Source of the DNA: Chitinophagales bacterium
GTDB taxonomy: Bacteria > Bacteroidota > Bacteroidia > Chitinophagales > UBA10324
NCBI GenBank assembly: GCA_044227805.1
Contig: JBGAWA010000001.1
Coordinates: forward strand, 43,740-107,739
Length of the DNA: 64,000 bases
Reading direction: 5' to 3'
Below, piece after piece: positions 39,116-42,991 of the stretch. Position numbers and translations under genes: made by a program. The notes under the pieces were generated by a model, which was not told the DNA's origin, did no database searches, and saw only the letters and a list, made by a program, of their open reading frames with translations. Positions within the stretch are counted from its first letter, which is position 1, and every line of letters begins with the position of its first letter.

Positions 39116-39277
39116 TTCAACCCGGATTTTTCAGTGGAAAAATCCCGCTTCGCTGCGACTTAGAACTGCTAAGGGTTTGCTCAATTTGTATAGAAAAGAA
39201 AATGTTTCACAAACCCTAAGCTGTTCTACGTCGGGGTTAAACCCGTTGCCGCTTTGAACTGCAAAATGCGGGTTCAA
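39116..39277 (+). repeat. 162-bp TIR/hairpin element, copy 2
   Basis: Direct identity with the other copies. It lies 75 bp downstream of the DtxR-family gene stop. Confidence 0.9.
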
Positions 39278-39352: not shown

Positions 39353-40006
39353 TTAGTTCTCCACCAGTAAGCTGCTGCTCACGTCAAGGCTGAGTGTTTC
39401 CGACACGTGCCTGCCGTAACTCACCACCATGGTGCGGTCGAATGGTTCAACGGATCTGATCTTCATCCTGGTTCCCAGCTTCAGGTCGCGGCTGTTCAGG
39501 AATTTCAGAAATTCCACTGAAGTATTGTTGACAGCAGCCAGTTTTACCGAACTGCCTGCCTTACATTCATTGAGGTGCTTGAAGGTCTTCCTTTCCATTT
39601 TACCATGCTTATCCGGAATGGGTGATCCATGCGGATCGAGTTTTGGATAACCCAGCAACTCATCCATCTTCTCAAAAAATTCTGTCGATTGGATATGCTC
39701 AACCTGTTCCGCAATGGCATGAACCGTCTCCCACCCGATCCCCATTCTTTGAACCAGGAACATCTCTGTCAGCCTGTGCTTGCGAATGATGATGCTGGCC
39801 ACTCTCTTCCCTCTTTCCGTAAGACGGAGAGGTTTATACCGCTGATAATGCACCAGCTTCTCCTCCGATAACTTTTTCATCATGCTTGTAACAGTAGGCA
39901 TCTTGATATGCAGTTGACTGGAGAGCTGATTTACAGTTACCTGCTCCGACTTGCCGGACAGGATAAACAGCGTCTTCAGGTAGTTCTCTTCAGTGAAGGT
40001 ATTCAT
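39353..40006 (-). CDS. DtxR/MntR-family metal-dependent transcriptional regulator with a FeoA/SH3-like C-terminal domain
   Basis: 217 aa starting MNTFTEENYLKTLFIL, with RGKRVASIIIRKHRLTEMFL and PHGSPIP. Confidence 0.9.
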   Translation of the reverse strand: MNTFTEENYLKTLFILSGKSEQVTVNQLSSQLHIKMPTVTSMMKKLSEEKLVHYQRYKPLRLTERGKRVASIIIRKHRLTEMFLVQRMGIGWETVHAIAEQVEHIQSTEFFEKMDELLGYPKLDPHGSPIPDKHGKMERKTFKHLNECKAGSSVKLAAVNNTSVEFLKFLNSRDLKLGTRMKIRSVEPFDRTMVVSYGRHVSETLSLDVSSSLLVEN

Positions 40007-40069
40007 GATGTGGATGTCGACGGAGGCAATGGTTATGCTGCCTGCGCGGATAAAGGTAAAAAAATATTT

Positions 40070-40085
40070 GTTAGATTCATCTAAC
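40070..40085. promoter_or_regulatory. candidate operator: perfect 7-2-7 palindrome GTTAGAT-TC-ATCTAAC
   Basis: It sits in the 112-bp divergent region between the regulator start (40006) and the di-haem gene start (40119). It has TTAG/CTAA half-sites like DtxR-family boxes. Confidence 0.4.
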
Positions 40086-40118
40086 TTTCTACTTTTACAA
40101 CTCTTTCATTACAATACC

Positions 40119-41324
40119 ATGATACGTAAACCCCTCATCACTTTTTTTGCCGTTCTGCTGGCGCCTGCGCTTTTTTTTCAGGCATGTGAGAAGATTACTC
40201 CGGCAGCACCTGCTGATGATGCGATACTGGATGGCCCGGTTGAAGGGCTTACTGCAGCCGAATATGGGCGTTTCATCAACGGTGATATCGCTTTCAATGA
40301 TGAAGTATTTACGGTGGAAACCGGTCTCGGTCCGCTGTTCGTCGCAAGCAGTTGTGGCAGCTGTCATGCCGGTGATGGCAAAGGGCATCCGTTTACCACG
40401 CTCACACGTTTTGGACAAAGCGACAGTTCCGGAAACAAATACCTTTCACAGGGAGGGCCGCAGTTGCAGAACCGTGCCATTCCAGGGTATGTGCCCGAGC
40501 AGATACCCGCCGGTGCGACCTCGTCCCGCTTTCTTCCACCTGCCAATACAGGTCTTGGTTACTTTGAACTGGTCAGCGATGCTGACATTTTCAAAATGGC
40601 TGATCCATATGACTTTAATGGCGATGGCATCAGTGGTGTGCCCAACTTCGGCATACTTCCATCGTACATCACACCGGCTGTCAATGCACTTCCGCAGGGC
40701 GGTAAATTTGTTTTCCGGTTTGGTAAGAAAGCTGGCGCTTACAATCTTTTTCATCAGACGGTGAATGCCTACAACCAGGATATGGGCATTGCTTCAGCGT
40801 ATGAACCTCAAGATACCTACACTGGCCTGGATGTGGAAGCTGAGGTAGGTGAAAATACAATCGGGGATATCGTCTTCTACCTGCAAACACTTAAAGCGCC
40901 TATTCAAAGAAATCAGGATGACCCACAGGTGCAGCAAGGCAAAAGCCTGTTTATAAGCATTGGATGTGAAAGTTGTCACAAAGAAACCCTGTACACCGGC
41001 AGTTCACCGGTTGCTGCACTATCCAACAAGGCATTTCATCCTTATACGGATTTGCTGTTACACGACATGGGTAGCGGGCTTGATGATGGTTATACGGAAG
41101 GAACGGCGAAAACCTATGAATGGCGTACGCCACCGCTTTGGGGGTTGGGATTGTCACCCGATTCGCAGGGAGGACAATATTACCTGTTGCATGATGGAAG
41201 GGCAAGATCCATTCAGGAAGCCATTGAATGGCATGGAGGAGAAGCTGCAGCAAGTGCAGGCAGGTACCACGACCTCACACAATCCGAAAAGGAAATGTTA
41301 CTGAAATTCCTCGAATCACTGTAA
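40119..41324 (+). CDS. di-haem cytochrome c lipoprotein, DUF1111 ('di-haem oxidoreductase / thiol oxidoreductase') family
   Basis: Track ORF starts at 39993; I moved the start to ATG 40119 (MIRKPLITFFAVLLAPALFFQAC lipobox). It has two CxxCH motifs (CGSCH, CESCH) and a C-terminal LHDGRARSIQEAIEWHGGEA. Confidence 0.85.
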   Translation: MIRKPLITFFAVLLAPALFFQACEKITPAAPADDAILDGPVEGLTAAEYGRFINGDIAFNDEVFTVETGLGPLFVASSCGSCHAGDGKGHPFTTLTRFGQSDSSGNKYLSQGGPQLQNRAIPGYVPEQIPAGATSSRFLPPANTGLGYFELVSDADIFKMADPYDFNGDGISGVPNFGILPSYITPAVNALPQGGKFVFRFGKKAGAYNLFHQTVNAYNQDMGIASAYEPQDTYTGLDVEAEVGENTIGDIVFYLQTLKAPIQRNQDDPQVQQGKSLFISIGCESCHKETLYTGSSPVAALSNKAFHPYTDLLLHDMGSGLDDGYTEGTAKTYEWRTPPLWGLGLSPDSQGGQYYLLHDGRARSIQEAIEWHGGEAAASAGRYHDLTQSEKEMLLKFLESL

Positions 41325-41328
41325 CGCC

Positions 41329-41778
41329 ATGCATAGAAAAGAATTCATAAGAGTGTGCTCCGCCATATGTTTGGGTGGAAGCGCTATGGCCGTGCTTCCG
41401 CAGGGTTGCGCATCGGCAAATTATTATGCTGCTACGGAGCTGTCAGGCAACCAGCTGATCATCCGGAAATCGGCGTTCAGCCTGGAAGAGCAGTATAAGC
41501 CGGCTTACAGAAAACACGTGCTGGTGAATATATCAGCCTTTAATTACCCGATAATCGTTTACCGGTTTGACGGAGAAACGTATTCAGCATTGCTGCTGGA
41601 ATGCACGCATAAAAGCTGTGAATTGCTGCCACAGGGCGATTACCTGGTTTGTCCTTGCCATGGCAGCGAGTTTTCCAACAGAGGCATCGTACAGAATCCG
41701 CCCGCCGAACAGAATTTAAGAACATTTCAGGTTAAACAGGATGAAGAAAATGTATACATACAATTACGGGTATCTTAA
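41329..41778 (+). CDS. Rieske [2Fe-2S] domain protein, exported
   Basis: 149 aa with the Rieske motif CTHKSC...CPCHGSEF and the leader MHRKEFIRVCSAICLGGSAMAVLPQGC (RK Tat-like plus possible lipobox). It starts 4 nt after the upstream stop. Confidence 0.85.
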   Translation: MHRKEFIRVCSAICLGGSAMAVLPQGCASANYYAATELSGNQLIIRKSAFSLEEQYKPAYRKHVLVNISAFNYPIIVYRFDGETYSALLLECTHKSCELLPQGDYLVCPCHGSEFSNRGIVQNPPAEQNLRTFQVKQDEENVYIQLRVS

Positions 41779-42991
41779 TGCAATATTGCTAATGCTTTGC
41801 TTTGCTTCCGCTGCACATGCGCAATCAGACACTGCATTCATCCATCGGGTTGCGGCCGATACCTCAACATCACAACTAAGCATGGATGCTGTGTATGACA
41901 GGCCGTTTCTCACAGCCGGCAAACTGCCGATTGCCATTGGCGGTTATTTTGAGGCCAACTCTGAATATGCGTCAACAGATGGCATTTCAGATGGCTTGTC
42001 ATTTCAGTTTAGGAGGATGTCCCTATTTCTTTCATCAACCATCAGCCAGAAAATCAGGTTTTTGGCAGAGCTGGAATTTGAAGATGGCACAAGCGAAATA
42101 AACCTCGAATATGCATCTATGGATGTAGCCTTTCATCCCGCGATTAATTTCAAAGCGGGCATTCTGCTCAACCCGATCGGCACCTTCAACCAGAACCATG
42201 ACGGTCCCAAATGGGAGTTTGTTGACCGGCCCATTTCATCCACCACCGTTTTGCCGGCTACTCTTTCCACTGCGGGATTTGGTGTTCATGGTAAATTTTT
42301 CGTGAACAACTGGATATTTGGATATGAAACCTGCCTGACTAACGGGTTTGATGACCGTGTGATCTCCAACCACCAGGACAGGACCTCGCTGGCTGCCGGA
42401 AAAATCAATGCCGGCAAGTTTGAAGAAAGTTTTAACGGCATTCCAATGCTTACGGCAAAACTTGCGATCAGGAACCGGAAAATCGGCGAAGCGGGATTGT
42501 CCTTTCTAACTGGTACCTACAATAAATGGAAGTTGGAAGGAGTGGAGATAGATGAAAAAAGAAGTGCGAGTGCGCTGGCTTTTGATTTTTCAACATCTCT
42601 TTTAAAAGACCGATTGAATATCACCACTGAAATAGCAAAGGTTTATGTAGAAGTGCCGGCAACCTATAGTCAAACCTACGGGACAAGACAGCTGGGTGCG
42701 TTCCTTGATTTTACTGCCACCATCTTTCAGCACCAGATGATGGGATGGAAGAATGCCAAAGTGAATCTCGCCATGCGGTTTGAGTACTGTGATTACAACC
42801 AGGGTACTTTCAAGGAAACCGGCGGTACTATCTCCGATGACGTCTGGGCCATCGTGCCGGCTATATCGTTCCGTCCTTCCGGGGCTACGGTATTCCGTTT
42901 CAACTACCGTTTTCAGACACAGCAGGATCTGCTGGGTAACCCGCCTTCCAAAACAGGTGTGATTCAGTTCGGCGTAGCTTCCTATTTCTAA
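41741..42991 (+). CDS. OM beta-barrel / porin-like protein, unknown family
   Basis: 416 aa with a signal peptide (…SAAHAQ), alternating-strand composition and a C-terminal ...IQFGVASYF. It overlaps the Rieske gene by 38 nt. Confidence 0.6.
   Translation: MKKMYTYNYGYLNAILLMLCFASAAHAQSDTAFIHRVAADTSTSQLSMDAVYDRPFLTAGKLPIAIGGYFEANSEYASTDGISDGLSFQFRRMSLFLSSTISQKIRFLAELEFEDGTSEINLEYASMDVAFHPAINFKAGILLNPIGTFNQNHDGPKWEFVDRPISSTTVLPATLSTAGFGVHGKFFVNNWIFGYETCLTNGFDDRVISNHQDRTSLAAGKINAGKFEESFNGIPMLTAKLAIRNRKIGEAGLSFLTGTYNKWKLEGVEIDEKRSASALAFDFSTSLLKDRLNITTEIAKVYVEVPATYSQTYGTRQLGAFLDFTATIFQHQMMGWKNAKVNLAMRFEYCDYNQGTFKETGGTISDDVWAIVPAISFRPSGATVFRFNYRFQTQQDLLGNPPSKTGVIQFGVASYF

Follow-up and report, generated by a model that had tools for sequence, protein, structure and literature searches.

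Why should a metal-dependent repressor stand divergent from genes for a di-haem cytochrome c, a Rieske protein and an outer-membrane protein? The question is raised by a four-gene locus in a stretch of 64 kb from a Chitinophagales bacterium (contig JBGAWA010000001.1; the whole stretch is called the window below). Here, a DtxR/MntR-family regulator faces a tightly packed trio encoding a di-haem lipoprotein of the DHOR/DUF1111 family, a small Rieske [2Fe-2S] protein and a 416-residue protein that we describe as a porin. A preliminary description of the locus had proposed a metal-repressed extracytoplasmic redox module with an outer-membrane barrel of its own, and our analysis supports this outline. 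The four genes probably form an MntR-controlled module for manganese (Mn) acquisition. A Mn-responsive envelope module with a reductive redox step is the mechanism we prefer, tentatively and with slightly less than even confidence.

A conserved operon of three envelope genes

The genes of the window were taken from a listing of open reading frames (ORFs) and from profile scans with Pfam and NCBIfam; all coordinates of the locus are positions within the 64-kb window (Table 1). The four ORFs lie where the preliminary description had placed them, and Pfam bears out the families it had named. The DHOR and Rieske genes are separated by a gap of 4 nt (41325-41328), the Rieske and porin genes overlap by 38 nt (41741-41778), and an intergenic region of 112 nt separates the divergent regulator gene from the trio. 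The longest ORF of the DHOR gene begins with a GTG at 39993 and overlaps the regulator gene; because the homologues, of 398-401 residues, begin at the signal peptide, we place the true start at the ATG at 40119 (MIRKPL...FFQAC).

To survey the neighbourhood, one genome per species was scanned, which gave 80 loci; these were compared by tblastn, and all ORFs within 6 kb were clustered. Names such as L016 or L100 denote the homologous loci compared. DHOR, Rieske and barrel genes follow each other in this order in 67 of the 69 loci for which 1750 nt or more of upstream sequence is available. The adjacency reported earlier is hence conserved, and a chance arrangement is ruled out. Both exceptions, a split DHOR match (L016, 4392-5580) and a partial Rieske match without a DHOR match (L018, 5708-6007), are found on 'tig'-named contigs of metagenome-assembled genomes (MAGs) and are more likely assembly frameshifts than real gene losses. 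Distances between the DHOR and Rieske genes cluster from -4 to +4 nt and the overlaps between Rieske and barrel genes at 4 or 26 nt; as the genes abut or overlap, their translation appears to be coupled. The regulator gene stands divergent upstream of the trio in 44 loci. Barrel, Rieske, DHOR and regulator are the only recurrent genes: within 6 kb of the trio no fifth one, imelysin-like or other, recurs in the 80 loci.

The trio ranges over Chitinophagales, Saprospiraceae, Sphingobacteriales, Flavobacteriales (Flavobacterium, Lutibacter, Allomuricauda, Aquimarina) and Cytophagales (Nibrella, Ohtaekwangia), and is also present in MAGs labelled Ignavibacteria and Kapaibacterium. Cultured carriers include Flavobacterium cauense, F. 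gawalongense, Chitinophaga japonensis, Niastella spp., Pedobacter foliorum, Dyadobacter flavalbus and Lacibacter. The nearest named homologues of the window genes come from Chitinophagales MAGs. Judged by sequence, the trio is a real, uncharacterised and very widespread operon, with more than 4,000 porin clusters, DHOR proteins of ~70% identity over the phylum and distant versions in high-G+C lineages and Gemmatimonadaceae.

Table 1. Genes and predicted regulatory elements of the locus, in positions of the window
Feature	Position	Strand	Basis
DtxR/MntR-family metalloregulator, 217 aa	39353-40006	-	Pfam Fe_dep_repress + Fe_dep_repr_C + FeoA
Putative Bacteroidota-type promoter: -33 TTTG at 40067-40070, -7-like TACTTTTA at 40090-40097	40067-40097	+	
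Candidate operator, palindrome GTTAGAT-TC-ATCTAAC, core TTAG-N6-CTAA	40070-40085	.	sequence + conservation
DHOR/DUF1111 di-haem c-type cytochrome lipoprotein, 401 aa	40119-41324	+	Pfam PF06537
Small Rieske [2Fe-2S] protein, bc-type, 149 aa	41329-41778	+	Pfam Rieske
16-strand outer-membrane porin, unannotated family, 416 aa	41741-42991	+	AlphaFold2 model + Foldseek

A probable MntR-type regulator and its candidate operator

The regulator consists of a winged-helix domain, a metal-binding and dimerisation domain and a C-terminal FeoA/SH3-like domain. Its best NCBIfam model is MntR (NF047407) with 143 bits, compared to 84 bits for DtxR, both scores being below the respective cut-offs. The closest solved structures are 5zr4, a 'metal-dependent transcriptional regulator', ScaR, SloR and 6o5c (94-112 bits), whereas IdeR and DtxR reach 44-70 bits. 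Residues H77, E81, H96, E100, E103, H104, D124 and H126 are candidate metal ligands; they are retained in nearly all cluster-linked regulators, and we take them to correspond to the ligands of DtxR and MntR. E100 aligns with Cys102 of DtxR, a position at which Mn sensors carry Glu. The position of Asp8/Met10 is occupied in the Bacteroidota regulators by an Asn, Asn8 within the motif EENYLK, where MntR has Asp8; the regulator of a high-G+C relative (L092) has an Asp at position 8, in the motif RQDYVK. Overall, the sequence resembles the Mn sensors MntR, ScaR and SloR most closely and is probably of the MntR type.

The intergenic region contains a perfect palindrome with the core TTAG-N6-CTAA, which is unique in the window (expected 0.52). 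A perfect core is found upstream of DHOR in 44/70 homologous regions, and in 53 of these 70 at least 7 of the 8 fixed bases agree; for comparison, 1.7% of random 200-nt segments and 1.1% of shuffled upstream regions contain a perfect core. Its consensus is wwTTAGryTwryCTAAww, the core of which we take to be common to the iron box of DtxR and IdeR. The site also precedes trios without an adjoining regulator gene, and the form GTTAG..CTAAC co-occurs with the regulator subtype closest to that of the window (L005, L016, L052, L065). The same palindrome lies upstream of DHOR in contigs with a G+C of 0.53-0.73 (L081, L092, L095, L098), where a chance occurrence is unlikely because the site is AT-rich.

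In the window, a TTTG and a TAnnTTTG-like box flank the palindrome, which fills the space between them; a box like the latter is found 3' of the operator in many loci, e.g. L003, L016, L052, L056 and L080. The two elements form a putative Bacteroidota promoter, an assignment based on the published Bacteroidetes consensus. By position and conservation, the palindrome is predicted to be a DtxR-type operator in the promoter of the trio. A scan for sigma-70 promoters and terminators returned counts no higher than expected from shuffled sequence; its model omits Bacteroidota promoters, so that the result is uninformative here. The window as a whole has no match in Rfam and hence no Mn riboswitch.

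Linkage to manganese transport

Genes for MntH/NRAMP transporters adjoin the module in four loci. In Flavobacterium gawalongense (L078), a single operator lies in the 91 nt that separate the trio from a divergent mntR-mntH pair, and the MntH scores 585 bits at an NCBIfam cut-off of 430; the arrangement in L025 is similar. L092, at a G+C of 0.73, encodes DHOR, porin, MntR-type regulator and NRAMP in this order, in ORFs that abut on a single strand (Nramp match E 3e-65). L100 shows this layout at 31-43% identity, and L099 has the pair porin-MntR. In the window itself, the trio has no such neighbour, and a search of the window gave no NRAMP match. The adjacency in the four loci constitutes independent evidence for Mn. 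In Bacteroidota, the DtxR-family regulator PgMntR controls a Mn importer (PMC4805248), and outer-membrane Mn channels such as MnoP are known (PMC9334652). The preliminary description had left the metal as 'Fe or Mn'; its link to a metal regulator stands, and because the regulator is nearest to the Mn sensors and MntH/NRAMP adjoins the module in four independent loci, the metal can be narrowed to Mn. We infer that Mn is also the effector of the regulator.

Two of these transporters are unusually long: MntH of L078 (2393-4264) comprises 623 residues, the NRAMP match ending at about residue 425 and leaving a C-terminal extension of ~200 residues, and its counterpart in L025 has 624 residues. A further locus, on a metagenomic contig with a G+C of 0.53 (L098, 931-14907), has the trio amid two FeoB-like genes, three DtxR-like regulators and a P-type ATPase with an HMA domain, and looks like a dense divalent-metal island.

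Iron has to be considered at this point, as a core resembling the DtxR/IdeR iron box could also indicate iron handling. DHOR would then be a ferroxidase acting on Fe(II) supplied by the porin, with electrons going to H2O2 or to the Rieske protein, either for Fe uptake of the kind suggested for EfeUOB and the imelysin-DUF1111 clusters or to keep Fe(II) off NRAMP in competition with Mn(II), and the regulator might sense Fe. The regulator, however, is matched distinctly better by Mn sensors than by IdeR and DtxR and has Glu, not Cys, at the discriminating position. The FeoB-like genes that flank the trio of L098 are in line with iron, and DHOR-porin pairs that lack a Rieske gene would suit a peroxide-driven oxidase, but the transporter that adjoins the module is MntH. 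Likewise, what has been proposed for the function of DUF1111 relates to iron uptake alone (PMC3143127; bioRxiv 10.1101/072470) and PgMntR also binds Fe(II) (PMC4805248), yet neither imelysin/EfeO-like nor DUF1513 nor EfeU/Ftr1-like genes are recurrent in the 80 loci. We consider iron handling quite unlikely and retain Mn acquisition as the probable function of the module.

A 16-strand porin

Neither Pfam nor NCBIfam assigns the 416-residue protein to a family. An AlphaFold2 model built from 62 homologues, with a predicted local distance difference test score (pLDDT) of 74.8, has 16 strands, and in a Foldseek search of the PDB it matches OmpT, PorB, OmpF, OmpC, OprP and OprO with probability 1.0 and template modelling scores of ~0.5-0.56. 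Weak Pfam matches in the family point the same way, to BBP2 in 17 of 21 members and also to Porin_O_P. The protein has a signal peptide, with cleavage between AHA and Q28, and ends in an aromatic residue (...SYF). The barrel predicted earlier from the gene is hence modelled as a classical 16-strand porin fold and not as a cytochrome sheath. Homologues number more than 4,100 in 90% clusters, all of them unnamed, with 1,631 representative clusters at E <= 1e-3.

Within the family, the most conserved motif is FNQNHDGPxWxFxDRP (149-164). It lies in a long stretch between strands 5 and 6, which on the modelled strand map would be the position of the internal constriction loop of porins. An acidic segment ELEFEDG (110-116) and an N-terminal extension LxMDAVYxRPFL are conserved as well, and P55, G67-G68-Y69, E114, P145, G147, H153 and P164 are invariant down to relatives of 24-36% identity. 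The extension belongs to a conserved segment of low model confidence that starts at Gln28 (residues 28-57, window 41822-41911) and might act as a plug or help the lipoproteins to dock.

These features argue against a porin-cytochrome conduit such as MtrAB, PioAB or Pcc, to which the preliminary description had likened the trio and which would exchange electrons with insoluble Fe or Mn minerals across the outer membrane. The trio does encode a barrel together with haem and iron-sulfur proteins under metal control, and for cells short of Mn, external MnO2 would make sense as a target. The 16-strand barrel, however, aligns with classical diffusion porins that bear an internal loop, here with a conserved motif at its position, and is too small to sheath a protein. 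DHOR has two haems, not eight to ten, in ~380 mature residues and is no multihaem wire; an extracellular multihaem partner is encoded in 0 of the 80 loci. The nine residues past the lipid cysteine of DHOR, EKITPAAPA, contain no acidic residue; surface-export signals of Bacteroidota lie at these positions. We rejected the conduit on the size of the barrel and the number of haems; it is highly improbable.

A Rieske protein and a di-haem enzyme as possible redox partners

The Rieske protein carries both cluster boxes, C92-T-H94-K-S-C97 and C108-P-C110-H111-G-S, including the disulfide cysteines. Its best solved relative is 5cxm, a 110-residue 'cytochrome b6/f iron-sulfur subunit', and the best PDB matches in general are b6f and bc1 subunits, so that the cluster site is, as far as its residues tell, of the bc1/b6f (high-potential) type. 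A Phe replaces the Tyr two residues after CPCHGS, from which we would expect a moderately high potential, assuming the usual effect of this exchange. The N-terminus, M-x-R-K-E-F-I-K, is conserved with a twin-arginine translocation (Tat)-like R3-K4-x-F6; R3, F6, C27 and the cluster residues do not vary among 24 homologues, and at least 90% have K4. Cys27 follows a hydrophobic stretch and may be a lipobox cysteine. The protein thus begins with a Tat-like motif and Cys27 in place of the usual membrane anchor, and Tat export and lipidation are predicted from these motifs. A cytochrome b-like gene is not recurrent within 6 kb of the trio in the 80 loci.

The di-haem protein matches PF06537 with E 6.7e-57 and 193.5 bits at a cut-off of 22, although the best stretch spans only positions 221-499 of the 499-position model. 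Haem 1 is bound at C79-G-S-C-H83 (CGSCH) and haem 2 at C283-E-S-C-H287 (CESCH). Residues C79, C82, H83, C283, C286 and H287 are invariant in 40 homologues, as is the lipobox Cys23, and more than 8000 homologues were found, with ~70% identity across Bacteroidota. By its sequence, the window protein is a true member of the DHOR family, in keeping with the earlier assignment as a DUF1111 lipoprotein with two CxxCH motifs. An invariant Met317, 30 residues past the second haem motif, and a loop DPxDxNGDGISG would suit a cation site and a haem that transfers electrons with His/Met ligation. Searches of the PDB by sequence and by profile found no solved DHOR relative but only generic cytochrome c segments. 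Similarity to CCP_MauG (PF03150) is weak, with matches in 8/40 family members and a best E of 0.0049; DHOR does not reach the gathering score of PF03150, and no solved CCP or MauG protein was found by sequence or profile. An AlphaFold2 model from a 40-sequence alignment had a pLDDT of 42.7, too low for a fold search.

The similarity to CCP_MauG raises the possibility of peroxide defence under Mn starvation, which would offset the loss of Mn-dependent antioxidant protection: DHOR would be a CCP-like enzyme that reduces periplasmic H2O2 with Rieske electrons, and the porin the Mn channel of the regulon. Pfam itself names the DHOR family a 'putative peroxidase'. Small periplasmic donors usually reduce di-haem peroxidases, a part that a high-potential Rieske protein could play, and the carriers appear to belong mostly to aerobic lineages. 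The strict, phylum-wide pairing and coupling of DHOR and porin, even where the Rieske gene is missing, nevertheless points to one joint task, and beside related porins another redox module stands in for DHOR. The conserved site is of the DtxR type, and no OxyR- or PerR-type signal was seen. On balance, peroxide defence is unlikely, and we continue with a redox step that serves Mn acquisition.

Variant arrangements

DHOR and porin are the most constant pair of the trio. They occur without a Rieske gene in L089/L090 and in L092-L095. In the former variant, the DHOR-porin genes (L089 3177-6200, L090 167-3190) are divergent from a MarR-family regulator, on a contig of low G+C (0.34) and with a neighbour that carries a type IX secretion tail. 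A divergent relative, L083, has the permuted order porin-Rieske-DHOR, and distant relatives of the porin sometimes stand alone, e.g. L082. In Gemmatimonadaceae (L085, 6001-9449; also L086 and L087), the genes after that of the porin encode FMN_bind (RnfG-like), a membrane protein of the Aq_1264_TM family and the flavin transferase ApbE; FMN_bind/ApbE take the place of DHOR and Rieske, and no DtxR-type operator is seen upstream. As the porin family is repeatedly coupled to differing redox modules, its substrate would seem to benefit from a periplasmic redox conversion.

In about 10-15 of the 80 Bacteroidota loci, more by our estimate than chance would suggest, genes for heavy-metal efflux are found at most 6 kb from the trio (L054 261-3321, L044 7967-10501 and L065 7725-12128; also L024, L030-L032, L058, L062, L074, L075 and L079). 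They comprise P1B ATPases, one CopA-like (CPC...MSFSS) and others CadA/ZntA-like (SCPC...ADVG), a CusAB-like resistance-nodulation-division pump, ArsR and MerT/HMA proteins. We examined whether the trio might serve copper or heavy-metal resistance and did not adopt this view, since the efflux genes are not conserved partners and have their own regulators, while the conserved operator is of the DtxR type.

Proposed mechanism

With Mn(II) plentiful, the MntR-type regulator would occupy the palindrome between the boxes of the divergent promoter and keep the operon repressed. When Mn becomes scarce, the repressor would leave the operator and the three translationally coupled proteins would be made. 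The porin would then serve as an entry channel for cations, presumably Mn, with the His/Asp/Asn-rich motif and the acidic ELEFEDG patch lending selectivity. DHOR, exported by Sec as a lipoprotein, and the Rieske protein, exported by Tat, would form a short periplasmic electron-transfer pair below the porin. Electrons would pass from the Rieske protein to the C-terminal haem of DHOR, of the His/Met type, in the way that small donors serve di-haem peroxidases, and the N-terminal haem would reduce oxidised Mn that enters through the porin, e.g. Mn(III)-ligand complexes. The product, Mn(II), would finally be imported by MntH/NRAMP in the inner membrane.

The direction of the redox step is the weakest link of this mechanism. 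In favour of reduction speak the pairing of related porins with FMN_bind/ApbE in Gemmatimonadaceae, which we take to be a flavin module of a type that delivers electrons outward, and, from the sequence of DHOR, Met317 near the C-terminal haem together with the weak CCP_MauG similarity. That the step is specifically a reduction of oxidised Mn is doubtful. A dedicated pathway of reductive Mn assimilation in Bacteroidota and some other phyla, in which FMN_bind/ApbE would replace the Rieske-DHOR chain in Gemmatimonadaceae, seems rather unlikely at present.

A number of observations weigh against Mn acquisition with a reductive step. The regulator stays below the NCBIfam cut-offs for MntR, and Asn at the Asp8/Met10 position is ambiguous, so that sensing of Fe(II) or of both metals is also conceivable; PgMntR binds both Mn and Fe(II) (PMC4805248). 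Direct adjacency of mntH to the trio is limited to 2/80 Bacteroidota loci, and two variants lack the link to DtxR, the MarR-linked L089 and L083 with no clear operator. The Cu/Zn/Cd efflux genes beside some loci hint at a broader metal context. For the redox chain, a lipid-anchored Rieske protein would have to be supplied with electrons without a cytochrome b partner, and with a DHOR model of pLDDT 42.7 the haem ligation and active site of DHOR are guesses. DHOR-porin pairs without Rieske are explained equally well by a reductase and by a peroxide-driven oxidase of Fe(II) or Mn(II). More generally, the function of the module is deduced from sequences, one predicted structure and gene neighbourhoods, and regulation, binding and transport are thus predictions.

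Surroundings of the cluster in the window

Profile scans identify the neighbours of the cluster as an AHSA1-domain protein and a TPR protein. Further neighbouring ORFs read as MutY-, SSB- and HU-like from their translations, names that come from the translations and not from a profile scan. From their sequences, the flanking genes look like housekeeping genes, and the G+C is flat over the region, which is part of the core chromosome of a Chitinophagales-like member of the Bacteroidota. Between the stop codon of the regulator gene and the AHSA1/SRPBCC-like gene lies a non-coding stretch of 367 nt with an inverted repeat at 39156-39233 (arms of 24 nt, 88% complementary, 30 nt between them), which may be the terminator of the regulator gene or another element. 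A second hairpin, of 14 nt, is found at 39119-39150.

Significance and comparison with known systems

In oxic soils and waters, much of the Mn is present as Mn(III)-ligand complexes or Mn(III/IV) oxides. How aerobic heterotrophs obtain Mn(II) from such oxidised forms is unexplained, and the module would place haem and iron-sulfur redox centres in a Mn regulon. If our interpretation is correct, three families that are unannotated or only generically annotated gain a function, Mn homeostasis gains a redox step, and the genes provide a marker set for Mn limitation in environmental Bacteroidota. Should the reductive pathway prove true as well, it would be the Mn counterpart of reductive iron uptake; a biochemical role would then have been assigned for the first time to a DUF1111 enzyme and to a periplasmic Rieske protein of the bc type that stands alone.

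The routes known for bacterial Mn uptake are the importers MntH, MntABC and ZIP of the inner membrane, a single characterised porin, MnoP, and a TonB-dependent/type VI secretion system (T6SS) route, none of them with redox proteins (PMC9334652); at the outer membrane, the 2022 review of Mn homeostasis names only MnoP, OmpU and MnoT/T6SS. In agreement with the preliminary description, which could place the trio in no characterised pathway, the searchable literature, which omits most subscription journals, holds no published description of the trio or of a link between DUF1111 and a Rieske protein.

Conduits such as MtrCAB, PioAB/MtoAB and the Pcc of Geobacter consist of barrels of ~20-26 strands around a multihaem wire. 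They share with the trio the co-encoded barrel and c-type cytochrome and a possible link to metal redox chemistry, but differ from its 16-strand diffusion porin and two-haem enzyme. The superfamily of di-haem CCP, MauG and MbnH proteins (PF03150) likewise has two c-type haems in periplasmic, sometimes lipid-anchored proteins with a small redox partner, whereas DHOR of the window lies below its threshold and belongs to PF06537. Among stand-alone small Rieske proteins (5cxm, 8hn2, 9rk3, 9rk4), the bc-type boxes, the disulfide cysteines, the small size and the lack of a nearby cytochrome b are the same; the window protein is set apart by its Tat-like RK motif, Cys27, the Phe for Tyr after CPCHGS and the fixed operon with DHOR and porin.

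On the regulatory side, the PgMntR-FeoB2 system of Porphyromonas gingivalis also combines, in a member of the Bacteroidota, a DtxR-family regulator that has C-terminal FeoA with Mn import (PMC4805248). PgMntR, however, has twin FeoA domains and an inner-membrane transporter as its target, whereas the predicted target in the window is an operon for envelope redox proteins and a porin.

Closest in outline are two uptake systems. DUF1111 proteins are known from clusters of the type imelysin/EfeO-like-DUF1111-imelysin-DUF1513 (PMC3143127; bioRxiv 10.1101/072470), the context that the preliminary description had also called usual. Like these and EfeUOB, the module has the features of a metal-regulated extracytoplasmic uptake operon that includes a DUF1111 protein and no inner-membrane permease of its own, with redox-assisted metal acquisition as the working idea. 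It differs in having no recurrent imelysin or DUF1513 gene in the 80 loci and, instead, a Rieske protein, a porin, a DtxR-type site and MntH. The second system is MnoP of Bradyrhizobium japonicum, a Mn-regulated outer-membrane channel for Mn2+ (Hohle et al. 2011, summarised in PMC9334652 and PMC6011978). MnoP and the window porin would be comparable as outer-membrane beta-barrel channels under a Mn-responsive repressor and upstream of MntH. By this analogy, an MnoP-like channel is the likeliest role of the 416-residue porin. MnoP, however, is controlled by Mur, of the Fur family, and stands alone, while the window porin is coupled to a di-haem and a Rieske protein behind a DtxR-family site. 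The module would work like MnoP plus MntH as regards the channel and like the imelysin-DUF1111/EfeUOB clusters as regards redox-assisted metal uptake, but appears to belong to neither system.

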